In this document: positions 1,061 through 23,935 of the stretch, piece by piece | How the letters are laid out: every line of letters starts with the position of its first letter | How positions within the stretch are numbered: the stretch's first letter is position 1 | Source: Xylographa opegraphella | Lineage: Eukaryota | Length of the DNA stretch: 23,935 nucleotides | Assembly (NCBI GenBank): GCA_022813865.1 | Contig: JALDZX010000030.1 | Location: 248,001-271,935 of the forward strand | Direction of reading: 5' to 3' | Notes under the pieces: model-generated | What the model was told of the DNA's origin: nothing | What the model saw: the letters and a program-made list of their open reading frames with translations, nothing else | The model's database searches: none | Translations under genes and position numbers: made by a program

Positions 1061-3619
1061 TCAAGCCCCGTAGGCCACTTGAGGCTGCGGCTCCCCGGGT
1101 GCCATGAAGTTTGTCTCGGGTCTGCCCTGCTCTTTTGCGGCGGAGCATCGTGCCATTGTGGGAGAACTATATCATCATAAGTCAGCGCAGCTCTTATTCT
1201 GCAGAATCATATATTCGAGGACAGGATGTGGATGGTCTTACCTTCGTGATATGACATCTGTAAAGAAAAAGTTTTTGATGGGATTCCTCAATGGCTCTCC
1301 AGAGGCCTTGCTTCCTTTGTTCTGGTCAACCAATTGGACCTTGCTCAATGCTCCCATCGAACTAGGCTCCACGATATCGTAACGTCTCAGGACAGGGCTG
1401 ATCTCTTCCATACGATCCCTGAGTGCTTCGATATCATCGTAAGGTAGCGGAGCGCCGAGATACTCGCTCACGGCCCTTATGATCTTCCAGTCGTCTCTGG
1501 CCGCTCCTGGCAGCGATGTAGCTGCTCTGGTCAATTGCACACGACCTTCTGTATTGACGTAAGTGACTGATTTCTCTGTGTAGGCAGCGCCGGGGAGGAT
1601 GACATCCGCGACCTGGGCGCCTCGATCCCCATGGTGACCTTGATAGACGACGAAAGAGTCTTTTGGAATATCGGAATCCGAAATTTCATCGGCACCGAGT
1701 AGCCATATCATTTTGGGTGTGGTAGATGCAACAGCAGGAGAAGGAGTTGTGAAGCCGACCTCATAAGCACCAGCACGTGACGCTGCACGTTGAAGAACGT
1801 TGTATCCTTGCCACTCGGGTGTGATGAAATTGGCCTTGTTTTTATCAACGAAGGAGCCAATAGTTTCGAAAATAGCTTTCGCGTCAGCGTGCTCGACTGC
1901 TCCGCTACCAACAATAATCATTGGCCGCTTAGCAGATTGAAGTTTCTTGCCGAAGGAGCCAGAGAGTGATTTCTTCAGCGCAGCGACATCCATACCCAGA
2001 TGTTCATACTCAAAAGTGCCCTCAAATGGCTCTCCTAATAGACCTATCTCGAGGTCCGAGCGGAGCCATTGTTTCCGTATCCGCGCATTCAGGTTGGCGG
2101 CTTCGTGGCGGGGATTAGTACCGACCAGCAGGATAGTGTCAGCTTCTTCGACACCGAAGATCTTAGAGTTCAGAAGATAGTTGGCACGAACATCAATACC
2201 ATGAGCTATAGGGTTGCTTCCGCCAGGTTGGTCAAGGGCCAGGTTGTCAGATCCAAGCTTGTTTGCGAGATCCTTCATTGCCACCAACGATTCTGTCTCA
2301 GTAAGATGACCTGCAATAACCTTAAACTCGTTCTCTTTAGGGGCGAGCTTCTCATAAGCAGACCCAACTTCACCGAGCGCTTGCGCCCAGGAAGCTGGCT
2401 CGAATTTGTTGTCTCGTCTTATCAGAGGAGTGGTTAATCTTTGAGTCTTGAGTCCATCGCAGGCGAAGCGGGTTTTATCGTTAATCCACTCTTCGTTTAT
2501 ATCATCGTTAAGTCTTGGTATAATTCTCATAACCTCAAGCCCTCGTGAATCGACTCTGATGTTGGAACCTAACCCGTCTAGTACATCAACCGACTCAGAG
2601 TGTGTAAGTTCCCAAGGTCTTGCTCGGAAAGCGTAAGGTTTTGAAGTCAGAGCGCCAACAGGACATAGGTCGATGACGTTGCCTGACATTTCAGAGTCGA
2701 GACTTGTCTCCAAGTACGTTCCAATCTGCATATCATTCCCTCTTCCTGTTGAGCCGAGTTCTGGTGCACCTGCGACATCGTTTGCGAACCGAATACACCT
2801 TGTACAATGTATGCACCGGTTCATCGAAGTTTTGATCAGCGGGCCAATGTTCTTGTCCTCCACAGCACGTTTGCCACCAATCTCATGAAACCGTCCTCTG
2901 TCCGCGCCGTACCGCATTGACTGATCTTGTAGATCGCACTCTCCCCCTTGATCACAAATGGGACAGTCGAGCGGATGGTTCGCAAGTAAGAACTCCATGA
3001 CGCCCTCCCGAGCCTTGTGTGCGAGGGGCGAGTCTGTCTTTACCACCATACCAGGTTGTACAGGCCATGCACATGATGCTACTGGCTTGGGCGCTCGCTC
3101 GACTTCAACCAGACACATCCGACCTAGTAATATGAGAATCCGTATTTGGTGTTGCTGTTATAGTAGTTATAGTAACTTACAGTTTCCCGCAATCATCAGC
3201 TTCCTAGATGGTGATATTTAGCAATGTCTATAAAGGAACTGGCGGAACTTGGCTTACTCGTGGTAGCAGTATCTACAATTATAGGGTCAGTAAGCAGAGA
3301 ATAGTTATCTTGACTGAAAGGACCTACCTGGGTATAGTGACGCCCGCCTTCTCGCAGGCTTGTATGAGTGCAGACCCCGCTGGAAGTGGTTAGCCATTGT
3401 GTTCTCCGCATCAAGCGCGGACTCCTACCCTCTATCGATACCTTCTTGCCATCTATCGTTTTGTTAGCTCGAGATCGTGGTATCTTCAGTAATAACTGTA
3501 CCTATCGTGAGCTCCACTTCCGCTTGCCTCGGGGGCGTTGAGACAAAACTCCTCGCCGCACGAGGATACACACGCCTGCCCGCTCTCGCAGCGGATCTAG
3601 CAAGCTGAGTCCGCAGCAT
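1061..3619 (-). CDS. nuo78: NADH:ubiquinone oxidoreductase 78/75-kDa subunit, mitochondrial (NDUFS1/NuoG homologue), ~739 aa
   Basis: Exons 3619-3502, 3452-3429, 3379-3328, 3272-3258, 3203-3181, 3123-1242 and 1166-1061. All junctions are GT-AG and the frame is conserved (2220 nt). The protein starts with an Arg-rich presequence MLRTQLARSAARAGRRVYPRAARSF. Fe-S motifs are IPRYCYHEKLMIAGNCRMC, HPLDCPICDQGGEC, CIHCTRC and CPVGAL. The C-terminus reads DVISRSSPTMARCS...YGA*. Confidence 0.97.
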
Positions 3620-4999: not shown

Positions 5000-6706
5000 T
5001 CATATCACAGCAATGGCATCCCTGCCTTTCCAGGTCTCCTCCTGGCGTGTGCCTGGCGGTAGCCAGGCATCCGCTCTGCTACCTGCCCGTGGTCTCCCGG
5101 GGCCCGCAGCGTCTATTCGCTTCTCGTCACCATTGACATAACCGTTCACGCCACCAAATATTTGTCCCGAGGTCATTGACAGCGGCGTCTCCATTATGCT
5201 TGCACCAGGATTGCCTTGCAGTGTAGATATTGACAACGGAAGAAGCGTTGCTTCAGATTTCATCTGATCAAGGCGTGCTCTGCGGTCAGCTTTTGCAGCA
5301 TCACTAGTACGGTCGTAAAGGTAAAGGCCGAGAAATGTCAAGGCTATGCCGCCAGCTTGGACACCTGTGGTACGATTGCCAAACCAGACGATAGCTGCGA
5401 CGATGACGAAGACACGCTTGATGAGCGAGGCAACCGAATAAGTGACCGGGGAGACCATAGATAGAAGGACGAAGGCGATGATGTTTTGTCCGAAGTGAAA
5501 GATTCCATTGAAGAGGAACTCGAGCGTGAGACGTCCATGATCGAGGGCGGAAGGTTTGTCAACCAGCTCAATGGAGCCATCGGCGTAGAAATCACGGAAC
5601 AAACCAAGACCTTCGGTCCACAGCCACAGAGGTAAAGTGAGCAGAAAGGCTAATCCAGAGCAGTAGCAAAGGAGGGTGAGCTTGTCGAGTTTGCGCTGCG
5701 GGTTAATGCTGTCGGCCTCAGCACGGGCAGCTTCGTTGAATAGCTTTTTAGAGAATATGTTTTGCGTGACAAAAATGAGAGCAGCGACAAAAGCGCAGAA
5801 GACCCCAGGGAGATTGCCTGAGAACTCGACCGAGCAGGCAAGAATGACACCGAGAGTTAACGGAATCAGGGAGAGGTAAGTAGCATTGGAGTAGTGGATA
5901 CGATAGATGAAACGGTAGGCCAGCACGGTAAAGAGCGGGGAGAGTCCTTTGATGGTATGGACGAGGGAGACCGGAATTTTCGAGGTGGCCGTGGATGAGA
6001 GGATATGGCCACCGATTTGGAAGAGGGCAAGTGGAAGGGTGGTGCGTACGACTTCGCGCGTTGGGTAGCGAATTCCATATCTTAAAGCTGTAACTGTGGT
6101 TTTCAGGGGAGGATATAGGTGTGCAACGTATGCGAAGAAAAGGCACCATAAGGAGACGAAGGCGAACTGGACAAGCGTGAGGGTTACAGGCTTGGGAAAG
6201 GCATTGAGAATAGACTTTGAGGATGTGTTTGTCAAAGCCGAACTCAGGTACCAGACCAGACATAGGGTCTAATTCAGCGGCTGTCAGTATTATATCATAT
6301 AGGACAACAGGGCTCATACAATCAATTTGAAAGACACGGGTGCCTTCAAAGCCTCCGCAATTTCGTGAGCGTTTGCGCTGACGCTGCCGTTCCTCGTCCG
6401 TATTGTCCTAATTGCCTCACTCAAACTCTTCTGACGACCATGCCGTGGCCCAGGAGGATGGGCACCTCCATTGCTCCGTACTAAATGGCTGTCTCTCCGC
6501 GCGTGCCATCTTTCACTGTGGAGAGCGCCATTCGGCTTTGCCGGGGCATTGGGGCTTGGTGTTCTCCGCCCCTGCCTTGCGGCATTATTTTCTTCCTCAT
6601 ATATCGTTAGATGTTCTCTAGGCCCCGGACATGGATCGAAGTCGGGGAATTTGAAGTTCTCTGATCGGTTGGAAGAAGAGGACCATCGCCGGTCTGCGTT
6701 GGTCAT
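5000..6706 (-). CDS. SLY41: Sly41-like triose-phosphate/nucleotide-sugar transporter (TPT/DMT family), ~551 aa
   Basis: Exons 6706-6320 and 6268-5000; intron 6319-6269 (gtatga...actgac...tag, phase 0). A disordered N-terminus (HGRQKSLSEAIRTIRTRNGSVSANAHEIAEALKAP) is followed by many hydrophobic segments. TPT motifs are WYLSSALTNTSSK, PVSLVHTIKGLSPLF, QNIFSKK and SPVTYSVASLIKRVFVI. Confidence 0.88.
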
Positions 6707-7266
6707 ATTCGAGTAGCCTTGCGGCGATGAAACTGATGTTCTCCGCAGAAGAGACAGAGGCTTTCAAAGGCATAGGCTCGGTCGGAAGGCATCACATCGA
6801 CTCGGTCATAACTAAAGTTAGCTATGCGGTGACCCGTAACCTGGAGTGGACGTTGCTTGATCGGTTGATCGCGGTATGCAAAAGCAAGGAAATGTGTAAC
6901 GATCGTCTCTTCCACATACAGAGCGGCGGATCTCGGACTCTGCTCCTTTCGCAGTTATCAGAATCGGCAATGAATTTCACCTACCATAAATCCCTAGAAG
7001 AATACGAGGTACTAGTATTTTCAGTTGCCGATCAAGCAATCTATTTCTGGGGAGCCAAGCCTTATTCCTTGACACATGATTGGTCGAGGATATGTGGGAC
7101 CAAAGTGTGGGCACGACTACAATCAATTCTATAAGCACGTTTCGCAATCCCCAAGTCCAGGCTTGAGCTTGAAAGCCGTTGACAAAGGTTCCGACAGCAA
7201 TGAACAGATTTCTCGGAGGCATATAACCAGACACCATACCGAAGTCGCGTCATTGACAGCGATGAC

Positions 7267-10122
7267 ATGGATCTCACAACTCAATGGCAAGTACTTGGGC
7301 CGTTTCAGATTGGCACAAGAGGTATGAACATGATCGTGCGGTTAACTCGAAAATCATCAAAGCGCTCATACACGACATAGAAGCTACCTGGGGTGCAGAT
7401 ACCTTGGCACGGCTTGGTGGATTTCCAAAGCTCTCGTACAACAAGGATTCCAGGTATTCGAGCTCTCTTAGCGCCAATGGCACTGTTGGCTGGACGCTTC
7501 ATGAAGCCGAAACGATTACCAAGCGTGAAGACTCTGTTGAGATTGCCATGACTTTCCAGTTTCCTCATATTGATTGGAAGTTTTTGCAGTCAATTTATGG
7601 ATGGTCAGCTTTACAATTCCAAGCCTGGGCTCGAGGAGACCTTTTGATAGAGGCGTCCATGCCTCAAGCTGTGGTCTTTCATACAGATAACGTGTTGGAG
7701 TTTTTTATTGATGGCGAGCCCTACTTTGGTGGAGATTTCTATGCTTATCGAAGAGCTCCTCTGGTGCTGCAATTGAAACCTGGTACTCATCGTATTGACG
7801 TCCGTCTGATAAGGGACGTACGCGCTATGGGTGGCATACTACCTCCAACACTCCGTGTAAACATCAAGGCAGAATTCTCAGCAGAGAAGCTAGCCGTTTT
7901 GAGTGATAAAATGATTCTGCCTGATTTGGTTGACGGTAAGCTAGCCAGTCATCAGGGATCAGTATCAGTTCGCAATGACAGCGACGATTGGATTGAGATC
8001 GTTGGGCTCGAATCTCCTGAAAATGTATTACAAAGCTTTCCATTCAGCAGTACACTAATGCTGACGTGACTTTAGCAGCTCACTTTACAACCCAATACGC
8101 ATCGAAGGTTAGCCCCTGGACAAGCTAGACCACTAAATGTTTATATTGGAAATGTGAAAACTGCAAACGAGTGCTTGCTCTTTCGTGTCAATTTCATTAT
8201 TGGAGAGTCTAGCCTTTTACAGAGTCATATTGTCTCTTTCGTCGTCACAAAGAGAAAGCTGCTTGAACCTCATAAGTACACCTTTCTTCATCCTAGTGGA
8301 ATTGTGTCCTATGCGATAATCCAACCACCCAGAGCTTTGGATCTGAAATCATCCCAAAAACTTCCGATTCTTCTTAATCTCCATGGCGCCGGACTTGAAG
8401 CCGATAGCGACCAAGTGCGCCATATGCTAGATTCAGCGACCAACATTAGAGCATGGACCCTTTTCCCTACAGGCGTAACCCCTTGGAGTGGAGACGACTG
8501 GCGTATATATTGGCTATCCACCGTTCTTTACCTCGTTGACAAGTCTCAGACACATGGGGCTTTGCAGATGTTAAAGCTGCAGTGGCTGCAGTGCCATTCT
8601 GGATTGAGGCAGTAGGGTGGACCGGTCCAGCTGCAGCTCTTGAGCAATGGTATGTTAGTGGACACTCAAATGGAGGTATGTATCACCATTTATGACAGCC
8701 TATTACCGACATAAGTATTATTAGGCCAAGGGACATGGTTCGTATTGTCTCATCAGCCGGATACGGTAATGGCTGCGGCCCCGGTATCAGGTTATTCTTC
8801 TATTCAGGGTGAGTGTGAATTACCCTTTCCGTGTACTTTGACTAAGCACAGCCATCAGCTTATGTTCCCTACCAGTTTTGGACGGAAATGGATCCCGGAA
8901 TGATGGCTGTGCTGCAGCTTTCGTTGGCAAATTATCGTCATGAGCTCTTCGTAGATAATTTTGTGGGAATTCCGATCCTACAACAACATGGGAGTAATGA
9001 TGATAATGTTCCCATATACCACTCTCGACGCTTGCGGCAACTCATACACGGCTCTGGATGGTCATCGAAATATGTTGAGCTGCTTGGAAAGGGTCACTGG
9101 TTTGAAGGAATAATGACAACGGAAGCAATGTGTGGATTTTATGATGATATCTCAACAAATGAAGGTTCCAAGCCGAGTTTACCCGATGAATTTTCTGTTG
9201 TTGTGCCAAGCTCAGGAGATATGGGCACTCGAGGGGGTATTCAGGTCGATCAATTGATCTCACCAGATCAGCTCGGCAGAGTTAACGTTGTCCAAAACAA
9301 GGATTTAGGAACATGGAGTTTGAGAACCTCAAATATTCGTCGTTTCCATCTTACTGAATGCAAATTTCGAGCTGAATCGATACACGCTATTGAGATTGAC
9401 GGAAGCCATCCAATACCACTAGCGTCCAAAAGAGATCCAGGGGAACAGTCATTTATCCAGTCTTCTGATAGCTTTTGGAGTGTAGGTGTCGTCTCTCGAT
9501 GTGTTTGGCTACCGATTAACGATGGTAGACAACGCAAGCAGAACACTGGAAGCATGTGTCACAGCGCTCCGGCCCACAGCTTGGAGCTCTAGATGCTATA
9601 TTGAGGACTAAGGGCCCGCTATTGATCCAGAGTCAAGGTAGCAACACCTTAAAGACTGCTCTGCAGATTGCTAGGAATCTTTATCAGTATTTTGGGGCTG
9701 ATTGCCCGATCACTGAGTCTGTTGACACCGATTATACCTTTCCGAGTAATGTTATTAGCATCTATCAAGGCGCTGATTCACTACCAGAAACTGCGCCAAC
9801 ATATCCTGTAGAGATTGATGCTACCAGAGGGATTTGTATTCGAAATGCCATGGGACGGCAAAAATGCTATCCGCTTACCGCTGGTATTGGGATCTTGTTC
9901 TTGCATCCTTTGCCAATGGAAAGACTGCAACTCGTCTTATGGGGATATGACGAAGCGGGATTGCGTTCCGCTTCGCGCCTCGTACCAATGCTTACCGGCG
10001 TGGGTCAAGCAGATTTTATAGTGACCAGTCCTAAATGTTCATGGAAAGGAGCAGCGGGAGTGATAGCAGCTGGATTTTTTGATGCTTCGTGGAATGTCTC
10101 TGCTGGGTCATACATGAGGTGA
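7267..10122 (+). CDS. Large uncharacterised alpha/beta-hydrolase (peptidase S9/esterase-like catalytic domain), ~850 aa; true start uncertain
   Basis: Exons 7267-7321, 7381-8024, 8076-8502, 8550-8675, 8725-8808, 8859-9481 and 9529-10122 join in frame (2553 nt). Motifs: WQVLGPFQIGTREATWGAD, LHGAG (oxyanion), nucleophile GHSNGG (split by an intron), HGSNDDNVP (Asp) and GKGHWF (His). An in-frame TGA at 7201 lies upstream of ATG 7267. Confidence 0.82.
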
Positions 10123-10678
10123 AGCCTGTTGGGCACAGTTTGGACGTGGATGTCGAGACGTGTTGCAATCTTGGGTTGTTGTGTTAATACCGGGTAACAC
10201 CGAACTCGGCAAGGCGGAACAGCATCAGAAATATAAATTTTCGTACCCGCATCTGCCATCATTTTCGTCCGCAACCTCCTTCCTAGCAGCACTCTCTTTG
10301 CCAGTGAAGTCCGCAAGACCATATAGAGCTTGAACTCACACGGGACGCACCTCTCATTTCTCGGTGTTAAGTTTTCATTGGAAAGGTCTTTCCCTTTGTT
10401 GACGTGTCAGCCGCAAGACGCAACTTCCGCGTTATCTAGGACCGCTTCCCACATTTATTTGATGATCTTTCGTAGACTTCTTTACACCTTCACACCACAT
10501 CGAGTACCTTTGCAATCATCTAGTCAATCGCTCTCTTGCACTAGCTGCTTAAGACTCCCACCGCTGTCACGCTCTGTGACATCTGCACCATAGTCAACAA
10601 AGCAGGCCGACTGCATTTGGACCTCATCTTCTTACATACTATCTCAAACATTGATTGAATCACTGCGAGCTTTTCATC

Positions 10679-13472
10679 ATGTCCTTGCATATGCCAAATA
10701 GCTCACCAACGCCTCGAGGCAAGCTCTCAGCTCAATTCATCATCCATGATGATAACGAGTCTGCGGATCAATCTCCCCCGTCTTTACGTGGGCCGGGTTC
10801 TGTAGGTTTTGCTTGTGGACCGACGTGGTTCATGCGGCTGACGTAGAGCCCACACAGGGATCCAAACACTTTATGACCCCAAAAGAAATTACAATTCCTT
10901 TGGTTTCTACAAAGCTCTGCAACATTCAGGCTCCGGCTATAAGCCGTTCCATATCAGCCTCTAAGGTCTGTTCTATACTATTCTTCGTGGGTTGTATCAT
11001 ATTACTTACAATTCTAAATGTTGAAGCTAGAACACAAGATCACCACTACAACCAGTGGCCAGGAGTCTTCCATGGACCAACTGCTTGCTAAGCTCTCGGA
11101 ACAACAGGTCTTGCTGGAACATCAGAAGAATTCTCTGAACTCTTCGGAGATCAACACAGCTTTCTTAGATGTTGATGGTTCAATGTCTAGTTCCGTTCCA
11201 CTCACTCCTGCTACGGACTCTTTCAGCGTAACACCAGGTACAGAAGATAGTGATGGAGAAAAGACAATTCAGCTGGACCCAGCAGAGATGCTTCGTCTTA
11301 AGAAGGAGCTTGACGCTGCTAAGAACAAGATAGCTCGCCAAGAGCAAGAGCTGTCTCAAACACGCATAATCAAGCATACGTTTGAGCAAGCAAGAGACCC
11401 CATGTTAGGACCAGCCACGATCAACAAGAGTGACCCTGTGGTTCGTACTATTGGCAATATTCAGGAGCCTTTTAGTGCAACGAATCGGCCTTTCGGCCAG
11501 CGTCCAGATATTATTGGCAACTATGATGATACTCGTTCTGACATTTCCGACGCCCTGTCTGCAGGAGCGTGCAATCGTACTCAGAACATCTGGTCTGGCA
11601 ACGCCACTCAAGGTTACAACCACGGTCTGCCCAGCCCTGGTAACCAGCAGTTTCAAGGACAAGCAAATATCTGGGGACAAGGAGGCAGGCAGTGGGGCAA
11701 TAGACCCATGGCGCCGGCATTGCCACCATTGATGGTGCCTCATCAACCACAACAGCAGATGAACCGCAACTATTCTGGCCCTGCCTCACCCATGTCAGGC
11801 GTCACCCACTACGGGAGTGACTTCGGTCAATTCCATGCTGCGCAAGGATTACGTCGTTCGAATACACAGAGCAGTCGCTCTGGCTCAGCTTTCGTACATA
11901 ATCGCAACATGGGTTGGGACGCGTATGCAAACAGCAACGATGGCAGTTTGATGAGTATGGGTCCACCGTCATCTTTTCAGCAAATGGGCATGTTTCAGGC
12001 GCCAATGTCGTATCAGCCACGTCCGATTGGTACACCCTTGTCTCCAACTGCTGCCGAGTTTACCACAAACAGTATCAGTACAAACCCATGGAACTCCACC
12101 GTGGGTCGCAACGAATCAGTTTAAAATGCTTAGCTAACATAATTGCAGGCTCCCTCATCTCCGGGACAGACTTATGTCTCTCCGTTAGAGCCGTTGAACT
12201 ACAGGCGACTCCTTGATCGAAGCGTTACCTGCAATTGGAAATACATCGTCGATAAGATTGTGTGCAACAACGATCAACAGGCTTCGATATTCTTGCAACA
12301 GAAACTTAAAGTTGGTACTGCTGAGCAGAAGTTCGAGATTGTAGAGGCCATTGTTGCACAAGCTTACCCATTAATGGTCAACCGCTTCGGAAACTTCCTT
12401 GTTCAGCGTTGCTTCGAACATGGAACTCCTGATCAGGTCATCTCAATTGCAAATGCCATTCGGGGCAATACGCTGAGTTTGAGCATGGATGCTTTTGGTT
12501 GTCATGTTGTTCAAAAAGCTTTCGATGCGGTTCCAGAAGACTACAAAGCAATTATGGTTCATGAACTCCTCCGCCGTATTCCAGAAACGGTCATTCACCG
12601 CTATGCTTGCCATGTCTGGCAGAAGTTATTTGAACTGCGTTGGAGCGACTCCCCACCACAGATCATGAAGTACGTCAACGAAGCATTACAAGGTATGTGG
12701 CATGAAGTCGCACTTGGGGAGACTGGCAGTTTGGTTGTCCAGAACATCTTTGAAAATTGTCTCGAGGAAGACAAGGTACGACCACCACCTTACTAATTTA
12801 GTGCCGTACTTGCTAATCATCAAATTCAGCGTCCCTGCATCAACGAGGTCCTAGCAAGTATCGATATCGTTGCTCATGGGCAATTCGGAAATTGGTGCAT
12901 TCAACATATCTGCGAGCATGGTGCACCGGCAGACCGTAGTCGTGCAGTCGACCACGTTCTTCGATACGCTACGGAATACAGTATGGACCAATTCGCCTCA
13001 AAAGTTGTAGAGAAGTGCCTCAAGATAGGCGGGGCCGACTTTCTTGAACGCTATTTGGAGCGTGTGTGTGATGGACGTGCCGATCGTCCTCGGATTCCTT
13101 TGATCGATAGTGAGTATCTTATAACCATTCGAAGTCTATCAGACTGACATGGAGCCAAGTCTCTAGTGACCAGTACGGGAATTACTTGATTCAGTACATT
13201 CTCACACATGCGAACGCGCAGCACCGCGAGATTGTAGCATCACACATTCGGTTCGTCAGGCCGTATATTCCACGTATTTGTGATAGCTAACTTCTGATAG
13301 CAAACATATGGTCTCACTTCGCGGTTCCAAGTTTGGATCTCGTGTTGGGATGCTTTGTTCCAATCCGGCTTACGCTACGCGTCCCGGCCCAGCTGTGGGA
13401 CAACCAGCTGTCAATCGCTACAACAACATCAACAATGTTTCAGCTAATCGGTTTGGACCTTCATACCGCTGA
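10679..13472 (+). CDS. Pumilio/PUF-family RNA-binding protein (Mpf1/Mcp2-like fungal subfamily), ~824 aa; first two exons less certain
   Basis: Exons 10679-10801, 10858-10965, 11027-12100, 12149-12775, 12830-13109, 13160-13250 and 13301-13472 (2475 nt). The N-terminal half has a coiled coil (EMLRLKKELDAAKNKIARQEQEL) and a Q/N/S/P-rich disordered region. Eight PUF repeats follow: DQQASIFLQ, NRFGNFLVQ, DAFGCHVVQ, HRYACHVWQ, GETGSLVVQ, GQFGNWCIQ, DQFASKVVE, DQYGNYLIQ. Confidence 0.9.
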
Positions 13473-14159: not shown

Positions 14160-14705
14160 TCAATTGGCTGCTACATTAGATCTAGCCGTCTCCCATGGCT
14201 TTCTCCGTTGAGGCCGCGTTGCCTGAGACGCCTGGCCATCAAGTACAGTATTCGGGATGTCTTTCACTCCTGGCACTGGTTGTCCACTGGTGATCAAATC
14301 TACAATATGACTAAAACTTAAAGGATAGGGAGCCGGAGGTTCTGCGGCCCTGTCTTCGAACTTCTCGGAGCTTTGGTTTACTGCATCTTCGAGCTTCATT
14401 TGGGTGGAAGACCCTAGCCGAGCATGCCATTCTCTGTAAGCATCGAAATCAACAGCCAGGTTGTGCTTCCTAGTCGAAATGTCAACCAGAGATAAAATAA
14501 TAAGGATTTCTAGTATAGCCAACCTGGAATAATAGAAGCACCTCGCCCGCAGTGTCAATTGTTCCGCTTGTTCGGGTTTCGGGTCAGGGCCAAGAATTGC
14601 ACGAAGCCCGCTTTGAAATTCTTCATCGGATGCCCATTGATAGGTATCGAGCTGATGGAAGAGTTCAGTGTCCACGGAACTGATAGAAGCCTCGATTAAC
14701 GCCAT
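14160..14705 (-). CDS. PEX39: PEX39-like peroxisomal PTS2-import factor (DUF5572 + HTH_76, C6orf226/YJR012C family), 163 aa spliced
   Basis: Exons 14705-14524 and 14469-14160; intron 14523-14470 (gttggc...gttgac...tag). The N-domain reads YQWASDEEFQSGL...ARCFYYSRKHNLAVDFDAYREW. The C-domain reads PYPLSFSHIVDLITSGQPVPGVKDIPNTVL and is followed by RRKPWE, the (R/K)PWE motif described for PEX39. Confidence 0.8.
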   Translation of the reverse strand: MALIEASISSVDTELFHQLDTYQWASDEEFQSGLRAILGPDPKPEQAEQLTLRARCFYYSRLAILEILIILSLVDISTRKHNLAVDFDAYREWHARLGSSTQMKLEDAVNQSSEKFEDRAAEPPAPYPLSFSHIVDLITSGQPVPGVKDIPNTVLDGQASQATRPQRRKPWETARSNVAAN

Positions 14706-15266
14706 TAGGAAATCCCTACGAAGTTTCGATTGAGGTAGTAAATGCTTATTGTCGGTGGCTGATATATTGAGCCTCTTATTGAGATAGAAACATTTCTTAT
14801 GTAATTTAATTTGTCAATACCAGATGTTTCGTAATTCAAGAGATCCAGTTGTGATGTCTCTATACAAGTGAATACTGGTAGTTCCAAAGTCACAACAAGA
14901 GCGATATTGAATCTCTAAGCATAGCGATGTCTTTCAACCATGAACAATGGTAGTCTAAAGTACATTGTCCTGAGTCTTTAGGCTAGATGGTAGCAGTGTT
15001 CGTCGATGAAACTAACGCCGAGGGCGTGCTTGGTTCAGCTGTGCTTTATAGGGCTGAAATATACAAGCTTCAACCATGGTTTGACGCTAGTGAAAGTTAA
15101 CTTCGCAAACATGCACAACACGCGATATTCGCCCGTCATTATCTCTCCTCCGACACTGCTCTCCATAACTACTACCACTTGATCACATCGTCAAGCCTCT
15201 CTGTATGGACTCACCCAAGATTATTTGAGCTTATCGTATAGAATTCACCACGCGGCAGCAAGGAAG

Positions 15267-17425
15267 ATGGCAGAATTTATCGGGTGAGGCTAGCAGTACC
15301 TTTTGCTGGTGACACTGGCTGATTTCACAGATCACGTATCTCACTTATCTCGAAACGAGACATTCGGTAGACTCTCCTTGTTATCCTTGCACCGGTCGCG
15401 TTGCTCATGGTTGGCTAGCTATGTTGGTACCCTCCATGAGATTAGTTCGGAAAACTCAACGGTCGCGCTCGAGCAGGTTGTCTCTTTCGGTACCGAGGGC
15501 AGGCGGCCAGATGATGAGGTTCCAGCGTCAGATAATGTCTACGAATACATAGTCTTTCGCGGAAGTGATGTTAAAGACTTGAGGATTGAAGAAGGGCCTA
15601 AAGAGAGCAACCCACCAAAGCCACCTGTACCTGACGATCCAGCTATCCTTGGGGTAAGCTTTCTTCATACGTGTTTCTTGATCAACGTCATGCAGGTGAT
15701 GAAATATTCGGATGTAAACACTATTTATACCTCCGAGAGCGCAAAACCATGTGGAGATTTCCGTTGCCTTCCTTCTGATGCTTCCAATCCTCTCATGTGC
15801 CGTCTTATACCGTATCATTTAAAATAACTAACTTTGTGCCTATCTCTGTATAGAGTGCAAGACGGCCACCTTCAGCTGCTGTATCGCAAGCACCTAAGGC
15901 AGCTCAGGCAGCCCAGGTACAAACACAAGCGACCCAATTGCAGCAACAAGGCCAAAACCAGCAACAACAGCCGCTACAAAGACCGCAGCAATCAATGCAT
16001 CCTCAGTTTCCTCAACAGCCGCCCTACCCTTACCAATATCCGCCACCTAATCAGCGGTTCGGTCCGCAGGCATTCCCCCCTGGTCCTGGCTTCCCAGGTA
16101 TGCCTTATGGAGCTCCTCCAGGTTGGTATCCACCTCCCGGATATGGCTACCCTCACATGCCTCCTAGCCAATTTCATTCTCACCAGATGCCAATTGGTCC
16201 GCCTGGGCAACAAATTCGTCAACCAGCGCCCCCACTTCCTCCGACTGCACCAAAGGCGCCAACTCCGACCACGTCTGCGGTGGACGAAGACCCAAAGCGC
16301 AGTATGGATGTCCCCTCTGAGCCAAGACCCATGGTTAAACTTCCAAATTCCTCTGCTACGCCAGCCTCTCTGCCGGTCATGGAGAACGCTCCGCCTCCAC
16401 CTGTTGAATCCAAGCCTGACGTTGCTGCCGCGCTTGCACCGCCAAGCAATGTGACCGCTCGTGATCCATCAGCGAGTAAACCATTACCAACTGGTCCGAA
16501 GAGTGGGCGCATCATACCGGTAGTACCTCTTCCGAGTCCAAACATCAAGCCTCATATAGCTGCCAATGGTGCCTTGAAAGCAGCCTCTGGTAACACTCTA
16601 CCTACTGCGCCTGTACAGGTTCCGGCACCTGTGTCCAACATCGCTACGGTTGCCAAAACGAAGACCATCGAGGAAGCTAATCGTGATGCTCGAGCCGCTG
16701 TAGCGGCAGCGATGGCGAAATTGCCTCCTGCTCCAGGACAGAAAAAGGTAACTGCTGCGGACAATGTTGGCGCAATGGACAACTTGACGAAGAAGGTTAA
16801 TGAAATGAGGACGAATGATAACATTAGAACATCACGTCAACCAGGTACCGGTGGATATGCAGCAGGGCACCGCGAGAGGGGGGGAAATCGCGGCGGACGT
16901 CGCCAATCTGAACAGCAGGGAAAGAAACTCGACCTTCCAAGCGCAGACTATGATTTTGAATCAGCCAATGCAAAGTTCAACAAACAGGATCTCGTCAAAG
17001 AGGCTATTGCTACAGGTGATCCTGTCGGAACCCCTGTGGATGGATCAACGACGAACGGCGTACATGAACTCGAGGGCACGAACACTGACAGGAAGGGAAG
17101 CGAAAGTAGTGCTTCTGCTGCGGGAGTGGCATATAACAAAAGTTCATCCTTTTTCGATAATATATCCAGTGAAAGTAAGGACAGGACCCAAGACGGCGGG
17201 AATAGGCTTGGTGGGCGGGAATTCCGTAGTGAGGAACGCCAGAAGAACCTAGAAACCTTCGGTCAAGGATCGGTAGACAATGGTTATCGTGGTGGACGAG
17301 GCGGCCGCGGAAGAGGCCGCGGCAGCTATGGCAGGGGTCGAGGCGGTCGAGGCGGCTATGAGCCAAGAGGTGCGCCACGAACTGGAGCCAGAGGCGGTCG
17401 AGGAGCCATTACATCGGAAGGCTGA
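15267..17425 (+). CDS. SCD6: Scd6/Lsm14/Sum2 translational repressor and decapping activator, ~619 aa
   Basis: Exons 15267-15283, 15331-15366, 15419-15653 and 15854-17425 (1860 nt). It contains an Lsm domain (MAEFIGSRISLISKRDIRYVGTLHEI...SFGTEGR...YEYIVFRGSDVKDL), DDPAI, a P/Q-rich linker, an FDF-type motif DYDFESANAKFNK, an FFD box (YNKSSSFFDNIS), a TFG box (EERQKNLETFG) and an RGG tail. Confidence 0.95.
15692..15781 (+). ncRNA. snR52: Intronic box C/D snoRNA, snR52 homologue (guide for 18S rRNA Am420, yeast numbering)
   Basis: It lies in the 200-nt SCD6 intron 15654-15853. Box C is GTGATGA at 15696-15702 and box D is CTGA at 15775-15778, with a GCA/TGC terminal stem. Candidate D' is CCGA at 15733-15736 and candidate C' is ATGTGGA at 15749-15755. 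The guide GTTGCCTTCCTT (15763-15774) pairs with 18S AAGGAAGGCAGC (one G:U), and the D+5 rule points to A420. Box D is 75 nt from the 3' splice site. Confidence 0.9.
17287..17405 (+). repeat. RGG/RG low-complexity coding repeat (Scd6 C-terminal tail)
   Basis: Recurrent (c/a)gaggc(g/c)g(c/t) units encode RGGRGGRGRGRGSYGRGRGGRGG...RGGRG. Confidence 0.8.
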
Positions 17426-17891: not shown

Positions 17892-18377
17892 CTACTTCGA
17901 CAGCGGCGTATTCCGCAACCGATTCCCCGCCATCACGAACAAAGTCATACACATCCCCACCCCGGACAGGAAGACGCCCGTCCGCGTATTGGCCAGGGCC
18001 ACGCTCTCATTATTGATGTAGATCACATTATACACCACCCTGCTGACCAGGTACCCGCCACTCAGCGCGTTCAGCCACCAGTTGTCCACGCCGGCCACGT
18101 TGCCCGCCACCACGGCGGCGGCGAACAGGCCGATGTTCTCGAAGCCGTTCTGCTGCGCGCCCTCGGCGCGGATGACGCGGTTCTTCGTCGCCGCGTCGAG
18201 GGTCTGGTCGTCGGCGACTTTGCCGGCTAGTGAGCGTGGCTGCGTGAGGTCGAACTTGTGCGCCGACTTGCTGTCGTAGAGCTGGGTGGCGTAGGCGTGT
18301 GGGACGAGGGCGAGGACCCAGGCGGCGGGGATGGTGTAGAGGGAGAAGTTGCGCATGGGATCGAAGAGGGTGGCCAT
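17892..18377 (-). CDS. MAPEG-family membrane protein (glutathione/eicosanoid metabolism superfamily), 161 aa, intronless
   Basis: Hydrophobic helices surround RAEGAQQNGFENIGLFAAAVVAG and SRVVYNVIY, matching the MAPEG RA--A--N--E and R--Y motifs. Codons are strongly G/C-ending. Confidence 0.85.
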   Translation of the reverse strand: MATLFDPMRNFSLYTIPAAWVLALVPHAYATQLYDSKSAHKFDLTQPRSLAGKVADDQTLDAATKNRVIRAEGAQQNGFENIGLFAAAVVAGNVAGVDNWWLNALSGGYLVSRVVYNVIYINNESVALANTRTGVFLSGVGMCMTLFVMAGNRLRNTPLSK

Positions 18378-18802
18378 TTGGGGTGAGATTTCGGGGCTGA
18401 TTTGGGGACTTGGGGGGGGGAAGTGGAGATGTGAGGGAGTGAATTGATCGTGGATAGTTATACTCGTAGCTTGACCTACCTGCCTTATGTTATCCGTGGA
18501 GGTGAAGTTCCGGTACGCTTCTAGTCCCGGATAATGATCCCTGCCGGCGGAAATGCGGGTGCAAGATAATAGCGTTAGAGACTAATCCTTCTTGGTAATG
18601 GCTCGATCTCCCTATCGAAACTCAATCGGTTTGCGGACCTTGCCTTACATAAGGTACTTCGACGTTTTGATATTGAAGAGCGGAGACGTCGGACCAGAAC
18701 GCATAACCGATAGCTATGTCTAGCAATCTTGAGAATTCGAGGGTGCGGTAAAGCTTTCTACAAATAATCTGAAAGCAAAAGCTCATAACATCACAGATCA
18801 TA

Positions 18803-19979: not shown

Positions 19980-21675
19980 CTATGCGGATAGTTCATGCAC
20001 ATTCACTTCGCCCATAATCTCGTGAGCACCAATAGAGCCTTGCAATTCTCCTCTGATCTTTGGTAACCCGTATAATTCACTCGTGGGACATTGTTCTCCG
20101 TGAAGCTCGCCCGCGAGTTCCGTGTCACCGTACAGCTCGTTACCTGCACATTGAACTGCAAGCCCCTCAGCAATCTCTGCGAGAGCCCCGGTCGCGGCTT
20201 GCTTTTCTCGTCTTCTTTTGCCCTTTCGAGAGACCAAGACGAATATGCCGCCGAGTATCAGAGTAAACATCACTGGCAACACGACCTCGAGAGCGATCAG
20301 GCGACGAGAAAGAGAGAGCGGCTCCGACGTAGGTGGAAAACTTGTCGTGTTTGATGCAGCCAGAGCCAAAATTGTTTGAATATTTTCTGTTACGTTCTCT
20401 GCAAACACACATTGGTTGATAGAAAATTGCGAGCGTTCGTAATCAACAATCAAATATCTAAACTCTACGATTAGCTGAACAAACATCGATTCTGATATTA
20501 GGGGCTACTTACGACTCTTGCAAGAACACTCTGCCCAAAGTATACTGACTATCATTGGAGGCTCTTTTAATAGGAAAATAGCTCGACGAATTCGTCACGT
20601 TCGGATATGCAGTTGTGACTAGTTGGTCAAAACTCGCATAAGGCAACGTGATGTTAACTGTTTCACTGCTTGTATCGTCTGTTGCAATTCTGATCGTAAA
20701 ACTGGGATTTTGAGCAAGCAATGATTCGTGGAGTGAGTCATTTACAAGGTATAGCTCGGATAAGGGATCATATACGAGTCCAAATACTCGTTCGAAAGCC
20801 TGGCAGACATCAAGGGGAAGCCACATATGAGATATCGTGCTGTCAACACATGATAGTATTGGTTGAGCGAGAAGACTCCCGCCCAGACTGCGAGACCCTT
20901 CAGAAATATTATATGTGATCGATTGAACTCCTACAACCAGCTCGCGCGAGTTATCTGGGGCGAAGTCGAACAAGATGTCGCTCGGGACGTATTTAGATGC
21001 ATCATATCCTCCCAGAGTCAAGCTAGCCAAAGCTTCCTTCAGTCCTAACGAATTTGAGTAACTATTAAAAACGGCTATATTGAATCTTACTATACTTGGC
21101 TCCCGCAGTATATCCAAACGAGAGACTCGGAATCTGTAGGCTCCCTTTGAGAGTGTCCATCAAGCTTTCAGTCGAGTTCCAGAGCTCCGTCAGATTGGTT
21201 GGTCGCGGTGCAATACCCCAAGTAGCAATATAGAAGTCTTTTGCTGCGATCCCCGCCAGGATCTGATGTTCCACAACAAGGGCACCGGAGCCAGGGTAGC
21301 CCAGAGTGAGAGTATCAAATCCAAAATCGCCATTACCGTTATACCCTAGATTAAGTTCTGTGTCTAGAGCATACAGACCGGCATCGTCCCAAGTCGAGGA
21401 CTCATTGCTGTGGAATAGACCTCCACGCGAAGAGCCGCAGTCCGAGGGGTCCTGTTGGGTACATCCAGCGGGCACAACTACCCAGGGCTGAGGTGCTGTG
21501 GTCGAGATGAGGACATGGACGGTCTGGGGCGGTGTGCCCACGGAGAGGGCAAAGGATGACCAAGGACCGTCGTTGCCATCACTAACTGTTCATCAATAAA
21601 CGCGTGACATGGACTCGTCAAAAAAGAGAGCGCTTACAAAGCTTGGCTGGGAGCGATAACGATTGGGGAAATCAT
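19980..21675 (-). CDS. Membrane-anchored pepsin-like (A1) aspartic protease homologue, probably catalytically inactive, ~512 aa; N-terminus uncertain or eroded
   Basis: Exons 21675-21638, 21581-21091, 21044-20513 and 20457-19980 join in frame (1539 nt). Motifs: PSQAFDGNDGPWSSF, VGTPPQTVHVLIST (where DTG is expected), FGYTAGAKYR, SLTLGGYD, VDST, YTLGRVFLQESYLIVDYER. These are followed by a TM segment (LIALEVVLPVMFTLILGGIFVLV), a basic stop-transfer stretch and an EL-x-G repeat tail. Confidence 0.82.
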
Positions 21676-22432: not shown

Positions 22433-23935
22433 ATGATGAAGCTACGTATTCTGTGTCTTGTGCTTCTTGACCTACTTCCACAATTCGTTACACAAGCAGG
22501 TAAAAGGTCTCGGCACCATGGCAGAACATAATAGTCCTGACAGATAATAGAAGGGCTCGCCTCCACAGTGATACCGTATAAAAATGTGACTGCAGCTGCC
22601 TCAATGCAGCAATGCTCGCCTTCGTGTTATATTAGTGCCGATGCTAATGTCTTTGTTTGGGTATCGAGTATTTCAGTTCAAACTGTGGCTACGTTGTTTG
22701 TCACGATCAACGATGCGAATGGAACGCAGCAAACTACCACGTCTCTCCAAGGTAACACTACGGTACAATTAAATGAACCTGGTCCGCTGGAATTTGAAAC
22801 GCCATGGCTGGTAAATAATACCATTCAGAAGCTGTTTTTTGGCCAAACTGTGTGGGTTTTACCGATTGTATCGGCCCTTGCTCTGATTGCTAACATACCC
22901 AAAGAACTTACCCAACTCCATACCTAATTGTCGATGGCTTCGATGTTGACCTGCAATACCCGACTACGATTGGCAACGTTGTTTCATGTAAAAGCACATG
23001 GATTCAAGACGCTCCCAGTAGCGTCTGGCAGTCGTTAAGTCCTCTGCCTACCAACACATCTTGGATAGATCTCCCGGCGCTATCACTTTACGTCAACGGC
23101 TATACAACATTCCTTGCGCCAATGGAGCGATCCGAGTTGGGACTACCAGACATATGCAGCCTTGTGACATATCAAACCATAGGAGCCCCTTCAATCAACC
23201 AACCTGTCCTCGCATTAACAGTCACCTTCATCATCTCGAATACTGCTACACAACTAGCTTTTACTACGTCAAAAAATCCAATAACGCCGACATTTACGTT
23301 TACAACCACTACGACCTCAGCTTCCCCTTCTAGTGCCATATTTTCCTTGCCTTCACAAACCAGCCGTTCGAAAACTTTTACGAAGATTCAAGCTGTAACA
23401 TCGAAAAGCTCGAGCTCTTCCTCTACTGTTTTAATGCCTGCTACTTTTGTCACACTGTTAACTATAAACAATCTCGCGCCTTCGGTATCATCGTCATTTA
23501 CGCCATCACCTGTAACACAAGCATCGACTGTAGCACTACCCGAGTCGGAAGTGTCTTACACTTCAGGCCTTCCCATATCAATAAGCGTAGTATCAATTTC
23601 AAGCGGACCTGTTTACATGAGTAGCATCGAAACACTCCCCACCAGCGAACCTTTTGTTACAGGTGGAGGAAGCTCTATTTTGCTTGCCACAGTGGCCATG
23701 ACGACGGTAGTCAGAATATCGACATTGGACCATAGCGTTGATACAGCCGCGAGCCCTGTGATTGTGATCGCCGGCTCTACAATCACAGCAAATTCAGTAT
23801 CCAACTATGTCTACGGCTCACAAACGCTCGTCCCTGGTGGTTCTGCCATTAGCGTCTCGAATACCCTTATTTCGCTTGCTCCTGAGGCCACGGTGCTAGT
23901 CATTGGCACGTCGACTGTCGAGCTTGATAGTAAAG
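22433..23935 (+). CDS. Secreted Ser/Thr-rich mucin/adhesin-like cell-surface protein (3'-truncated by the window edge)
   Basis: Exons 22433-22499, 22551-22851 and 22905 to beyond 23935. It has a signal-peptide-like start MMKLRILCLVLLDLLPQFVTQA, a Cys-containing N-domain with TYPTPY, many N-x-T/S sequons and a long S/T/P tract. It ends in a repeat-like unit, PVIVIAGSTITANSVSNYVYGSQTLVPGGSAISVSNTLISLAPEATVLVIGTST. The last exon is absent from the ORF track because it has no stop within the window. Confidence 0.8.

Follow-up and report, generated by a model that had tools for sequence, protein, structure and literature searches.

snR52, a family of box C/D snoRNAs, and its intronic location in moulds are already known (PMC2780460, PMC4138321, PMC2377427). 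N. crassa Nc CD42 (EU780965) is an intronic snR52 of 92 nt, backed by northern blot and RT (Liu et al. 2009, PMC2780460), and S. pombe snR52 (SPSNORNA.29) is intronic and carries a single guide, for 18S-Am423 (Diao et al. 2014, PMC4138321). A. fumigatus Afu-200 (AM921928) was cloned as a 91-nt C/D snoRNA cDNA assigned to ‘intron 3 (sense)’ of the protein-coding gene Afu1g12390, with Am415 and Gm1422 as predicted targets (Jochl et al. 2008, PMC2377427). An alignment of filamentous-fungal snR52 marks an extra pairing, S415-10, and an S1428 guide, with the L2921 guide confined to the Saccharomycotina rows (van Nues 2011, PMC3116282), and snR52 and snR56 make up the guide-switching clan CD_19 (Canzler et al. 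2018, PMC5824354). Relocation of snoRNA introns in fungi has also been described (PMC3596301, PMC5033589). Yeast SNR52 is a Pol III gene (PMC10557570), as a preliminary description of the locus reported here had stated.

This locus lies in a 23,935-nt stretch of the Xylographa opegraphella genome (the window), with snoRNA and host gene both on the + strand. The snoRNA (15690–15782) matches RF00335 (snoZ13_snr52) over the full model (positions 1–101) at 85 bits (cut-off 47; E 4.9e-16), far beyond chance, and bears out the preliminary description, which had named snR52 and proposed this Rfam search. It is the sole Rfam match in the window, whether at gathering score or at E ≤ 1, and the only RF00335 match in the assembly, where scoring covered 53 of 1322 candidates. 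Box C (GTGATGA, 15696–15702) and box D (CTGA, 15775–15778) are present at the previously given start positions, at the two ends of the RNA, and are enclosed by a terminal stem (15692–15694 with 15779–15781), from which the mature ends are predicted at ~15692 and ~15781. The stem had been noted before and is present, but short (3 bp, with one further pair beyond a mismatch). An internal motif is formed by box D′ (CCGA, 15733–15736) and box C′ (ATGTGGA, 15749–15755), and two further conserved elements, CGGATGT (15709–15715) and a GCGC in the D′–C′ loop (15739–15742), lie outside the boxes. The RNA folds no better than shuffled sequences (z about 0.1), folding energy being uninformative here.

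The host is a gene at 15267–17425 that encodes 619 aa, whose borders and exons (15267–15283, 15331–15366, 15419–15653 and 15854–17425) were placed from the sequence, and whose frame stays open throughout when intron 3 is spliced out. An LSM14 domain in exon 3 (PF12701, E 1.4e-24) and an FDF domain in exon 4 (PF09532, E 7.7e-21), both above the Pfam cut-off, identify it as SCD6/LSM14/Sum2; the translation also has a C-terminal RGG tract. Intron 3 (15654–15853), which carries the snoRNA, is in phase 0 after codon 96 and has GT–AG ends (GTAAGC...TAG) and a canonical branch site (ACTAACT, 15827–15833; branch A at 15831). If it were kept in the mRNA, translation would reach a stop at codon 154. The length of 200 nt and the 75 nt from box D to the acceptor are as given in the preliminary description, and its figure of 46–59 nt for most other introns fits the remaining two of SCD6 (47 and 52 nt). 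The donor of intron 2 (15367–15418), GTAGAC, is atypical and a canonical branch motif is lacking, so that this intron was delimited by the reading frame. A naive intron motif scan across the window was noisy, returning 41 candidates.

Relatives were fetched from metagenomes by an exact 21-nt 3′-end pattern, which yielded at least 115 stretches, 80 of them with wide flanks; because of selection on this 3′ end, the set cannot show guide conservation and under-samples divergent families. Clustering at 90% identity gave 84 clusters among the matches listed, here called distinct loci, which are not equivalent to independent lineages. All 20 metagenome loci tested passed the Rfam cut-off. In the matches listed, CGGATG is present in 111/111 loci with enough flank, compared with 3/107, 0/109 and 0/103 in control windows; this is an unanchored count, another count having been anchored on the motif itself. 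Boxes D′ and C′ co-vary: D′ position 2 and C′ position 5 are C-G in 58, U-U in 14, U-G in four and U-A in three of the 79 sequences that could be parsed, from 80 distinct sequences among the matches listed. Every invariant position is intact in the X. opegraphella copy.

A search with RF01960 found no 18S rDNA in the 24.7-Mb X. opegraphella assembly, and eight exact 12-mer matches in that assembly had no Rfam match. Surrogate rRNA was therefore used, comprising 49 eukaryotic rDNA stretches (L127–L175) from bacterial genome records; as these were fetched by exact target match, they give the position and context of the target, not its conservation. An Rfam 18S match was obtained for 11 of 12 surrogate contigs tested. 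The occurrence of eukaryotic rDNA contigs in many bacterial genome records (L127–L175) represents contamination. One match in a viral contig (L126) was a chance match rather than rRNA and was left out of the pairing analysis.

The D-box guide (15763–15774) forms 12 bp with 18S positions 412–423 of L135, a longer duplex than any other in the seven rRNA stretches that were scanned. The 12-nt guide proposed earlier therefore stands as a 12-bp pairing, although one of its pairs is G-U and 11 are Watson-Crick. On the surrogate rRNA, more than the 10 nt looked for thus end at box D, and D+5 falls on A416 of L135, which corresponds to a known methylated site, given as Am417 for N. crassa (with the same duplex), Am423 for S. 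pombe and S420 for yeast. The 6 nt of 18S immediately 5′ of the guide duplex find their complement in GGATGT at 15710–15715 (chance level 1.7%), a pairing already published as the S415-10 extra pairing (van Nues 2011, PMC3116282). From its boxes and guide, the snoRNA is predicted to direct 2′-O-methylation of 18S at the adenosine that corresponds to yeast A420.

Compared with S. cerevisiae snR52, the X. opegraphella RNA has the same D guide, 3′ end and Rfam family. In Supplementary Fig. S1 of van Nues 2011, the S. cerevisiae sequence ends in the same 16 nt, as the preliminary description had stated. S. cerevisiae snR52 differs in having the L2921 D′ guide and, in PMC3116282, in being without GGAUGU and GCGC. 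The earlier analogy to a double Am420/Um2921 guide accordingly holds for the Am420-equivalent D guide but not for Um2921, a guide seen in 0/80 distinct sequences among the matches listed, X. opegraphella included; nor did an exact pattern of box C plus the Um2921 guide match elsewhere in the X. opegraphella assembly, which is incomplete. N. crassa CD42 resembles the X. opegraphella RNA in being intronic, in having a single D guide (18S-Am417) and in an identical 16-nt 3′ end, but has a CUGA-type D′ box instead of CCGA. With S. pombe snR52 the elements CGGAUG and CCGAGAGCGCA are shared (PMC4138321). Afu-200 differs by an extra D′ guide for Gm1422 (snR56), which is absent in X. opegraphella.

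The Aspergillus-type D′ guide for Gm1428, missing from X. opegraphella snR52, is carried by 12 of the 80 distinct snR52 sequences among the matches listed, in keeping with the exchange of guides between snR52 and snR56 in clan CD_19. Two snR56-like C/D RNAs with the Gm1428 guide are present elsewhere in the X. opegraphella assembly, in intron-like context (C46:388254 and C172:205841, both on the − strand; L176 and L177). They have different D guides, neither of them for Am420, and score 42.8 and 37.5 bits, below the Rfam snR56 cut-off of 54, so that standard annotation would miss them. In X. opegraphella snR52 the sequence before D′ is variable among relatives and has no convincing rRNA target. 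An orphan D′ guide was considered here and rejected, since the best rRNA matches were of 6–9 bp, the longer ones contained 2–3 G-U pairs and the region is unconserved.

Assembly of snoRNPs coupled to splicing predicts a fixed distance between snoRNA and branch point. Box D lies 53 nt upstream of the branch A in X. opegraphella, close to the median of 55 nt (IQR 53–59, range 34–76) in 57 distinct SCD6 introns among the matches listed, and the 75 nt to the AG compare with a median of 72 nt in the same 57 introns. The donor is 42 nt from box C here and 35–93 nt from it in 56 orthologous introns among the matches listed. The snoRNA thus lies on the sense strand of an apparently spliceosomal intron with conserved branch-point spacing, which fits the processing from the intron that the preliminary description had proposed. 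It is very probably a true snR52 of the filamentous-fungus form with one guide, encoded within an SCD6 intron and likely set free once that intron has been spliced. In the sequence of events expected from C/D snoRNA biology, Pol II would transcribe SCD6 together with the snoRNA in intron 3, and Snu13, Nop56, Nop58 and Nop1 would assemble on the C/D and C′/D′ motifs, ~53 nt before the branch point. Dbr1 would then debranch the lariat, and Rat1/Xrn1 together with the exosome would trim it to an RNA ~90 nt long, whose D guide would pair with 18S, with GGAUGU as an extra anchor on the 6 nt just upstream, and Nop1 would methylate the D+5 adenosine. Release, trimming and methylation by Nop1 at D+5 are reviewed for C/D snoRNAs in PMC10557570.

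Host genes were first sorted into 59 SCD6, 22 other and three too short among the 84 distinct loci. The Pfam scan covered 104 of 119 nearby frames (the 15 left out come from L029, L043, L112, L025 and L018), and L027 and L125 were reassigned to SCD6 on fragment-level LSM14 matches, giving final counts of 61 in SCD6, 20 elsewhere and three too short among the matches listed. In 55 of the 59 SCD6 loci, again among the matches listed, the donor follows in frame a short DPA motif at the end of the LSM14 region, and the intron of these 55 thus sits at the codon boundary used in X. opegraphella. In 19 loci among the matches listed, basidiomycete Scd6 outscores the X. opegraphella protein, in L103 by one bit. 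For the window itself, SCD6 scores and snoRNA type both suggest a filamentous ascomycete. The L025 group is Agaricales-like: the L025 exon is 76% identical to Scd6 of Leucoagaricus gongylophorus, and the named matches listed are basidiomycetes. The same SCD6 boundary holds the intron in L016/L025, L018, L094 and L119. The presence of this boundary in Agaricales-type loci makes it probable that the arrangement is older than the split of Ascomycota and Basidiomycota, and there is a good chance that the snR52 intron has been at this one SCD6 codon boundary since before then. The distribution suggests that the old arrangement in Dikarya had snR52 in an SCD6 intron, the Pol III gene of yeast being a derived state, and that moves to other hosts came later.

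Among these other hosts, the gene for ATP synthase gamma carries snR52 in an intron in three loci (L060, at 1857–2114 on the + strand; L105; L121), where the snoRNA intron was likely relocated or duplicated. A DUF2408 gene is the host, again in an intron, in L012, and its flanking peptide is shared by L050 (group L050/L071) and L124; the snoRNA of the L012 group is very similar to the snoRNAs found in L023 and L123, both in SCD6. The remaining hosts outside SCD6 have no Pfam match, some of them having only 300 nt of flank. Such host changes of snR52 are an example of a described process, relocation of snoRNA introns, and not of a new one.

The preliminary description had gone further and tied rRNA methylation to expression of SCD6, a translational repressor. 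Co-transcription of the two does follow from the location. Two observations would suit a retention of SCD6 as host because rRNA methylation, or splicing of the host, is coupled to translational repression through Scd6: Pezizomycotina-type and Agaricales-type loci share the codon boundary, in what looks like a very old arrangement, and keeping intron 3 in the mRNA would truncate Scd6 at codon 154. Yet 20 of the 84 distinct loci among the matches listed are outside SCD6 (ATP synthase gamma, DUF2408 and hosts without Pfam match), so the pairing does not look obligatory, which weakens a regulatory tie and leaves the functional part of the earlier claim unsupported. S. cerevisiae, moreover, makes snR52 from an independent Pol III gene, and old snoRNA introns both persist and move without regulatory meaning (PMC3596301). 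Host–guest coupling is accordingly considered unlikely, with perhaps one chance in eight. Were it to hold, supply of 18S Am420 or splicing of SCD6 would be linked to translational repression in P-bodies. The most likely role of SCD6 is that of a long-standing snoRNA host whose expression is convenient.

That the X. opegraphella sequence is a decayed or silent copy of snR52 is very improbable: the short terminal stem might point that way, but every invariant position is intact, no other RF00335 match was obtained in the assembly (53 of 1322 candidates scored), and the two snR56-like RNAs are without the Am420 guide. Independent transcription of a snoRNA that merely overlaps the intron, from an internal Pol II promoter or by Pol III as for yeast SNR52 with its upstream A and B elements, is less probable still, since 14801–16200 has neither a strict B box nor a run of at least five T and the space after the donor is small (35–93 nt to box C in 56 introns among the matches listed, with tight branch-point spacing). 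The S. cerevisiae-type signals looked for in 14801–16200 were A and B boxes and a T-run terminator; a loose A-box/B-box pair at 15031/15079 was discarded because it fails the strict B box.

The conserved GCGC of the D′–C′ loop is a candidate for a second extra-pairing element of the intron-encoded snR52, opposite 18S positions 426–431 of L135. The loop reads GCGC in 68, GCGT in nine and GTGC in two of 80 distinct sequences among the matches listed, one being unparsed. Each of the 11 changes replaces C by U opposite a G, and 17 sequences contain a U that could form one more pair. In 18S, a GCGC lies 2–4 nt after the guide duplex, and the following 13 nt are identical in 41 of 43 rDNA loci; a GCGC as close as this occurs at 8% of 18S sites by chance. 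The text of the figure in van Nues 2011 carries no mark on the GCGC between D′ and C′. Pairing of this loop with 18S as a third contact is a possibility somewhat short of even odds and is offered as a lead only, as the changes may stem from few lineages and a compensatory change is impossible. A three-point clamp on 18S (GGAUGU, D guide and GCGC) would cover ~26 nt, overlap the U14 Cm414 site and set the order of snoRNP action. That such a clamp exists and that, in addition, host–guest coupling is what has kept the intron at its SCD6 boundary is unlikely.

A search for literature naming SCD6/LSM14 as the host of snR52 found none, although Canzler S9 and the supplements of Jochl et al. may state it. 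The Aspergillus/Penicillium-type snoRNAs of L066 and L087 sit in the SCD6 intron, and Afu1g12390, the host of Afu-200, is presumably the Sum2/SCD6 orthologue. By eye, the L066 snoRNA matches the P. chrysogenum row of the van Nues 2011 alignment. SCD6 is probably already known as a host of snR52. In X. opegraphella, protein-centred annotation misses a single-copy guide for rRNA methylation, and in moulds a knock-out of SCD6 would delete snR52 as well, a confound for Scd6 phenotypes.

Several loci have unusual arrangements. Tandem snR52 pairs ~220 nt apart are found in L030 (1992–2315) and L045 (1996–2312), both on the − strand, each copy in its own intron-like unit and the host without Pfam match; in Pleurotus, one intronic and two tandem snR52 matches have been reported (PMC5040776). 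In L015/L077, L029/L055 and L031, and in L044/L098, apparently non-coding exons hold snR52; they lie downstream of a gene with an eRF1 domain (L015), these snoRNAs carrying the Gm1428 guide, or of an RPL6 gene (L044).

Elsewhere in the window, several long frames at 6655–12124 and 22894–23934 gave no Pfam match. Pfam identified genes for the complex I 75-kDa subunit (1238–3157, −), a triose-phosphate transporter (5000–6268, −), a PUF-repeat protein (12143–13147, +) and an aspartyl protease, the last with a weak match (21065–21589, −). SCD6 is flanked by a gene for a KPWE-domain protein, divergent from it (14160–14813, −), and by one for a MAPEG protein in a G+C-rich stretch (0.61; 17892–18581, −).
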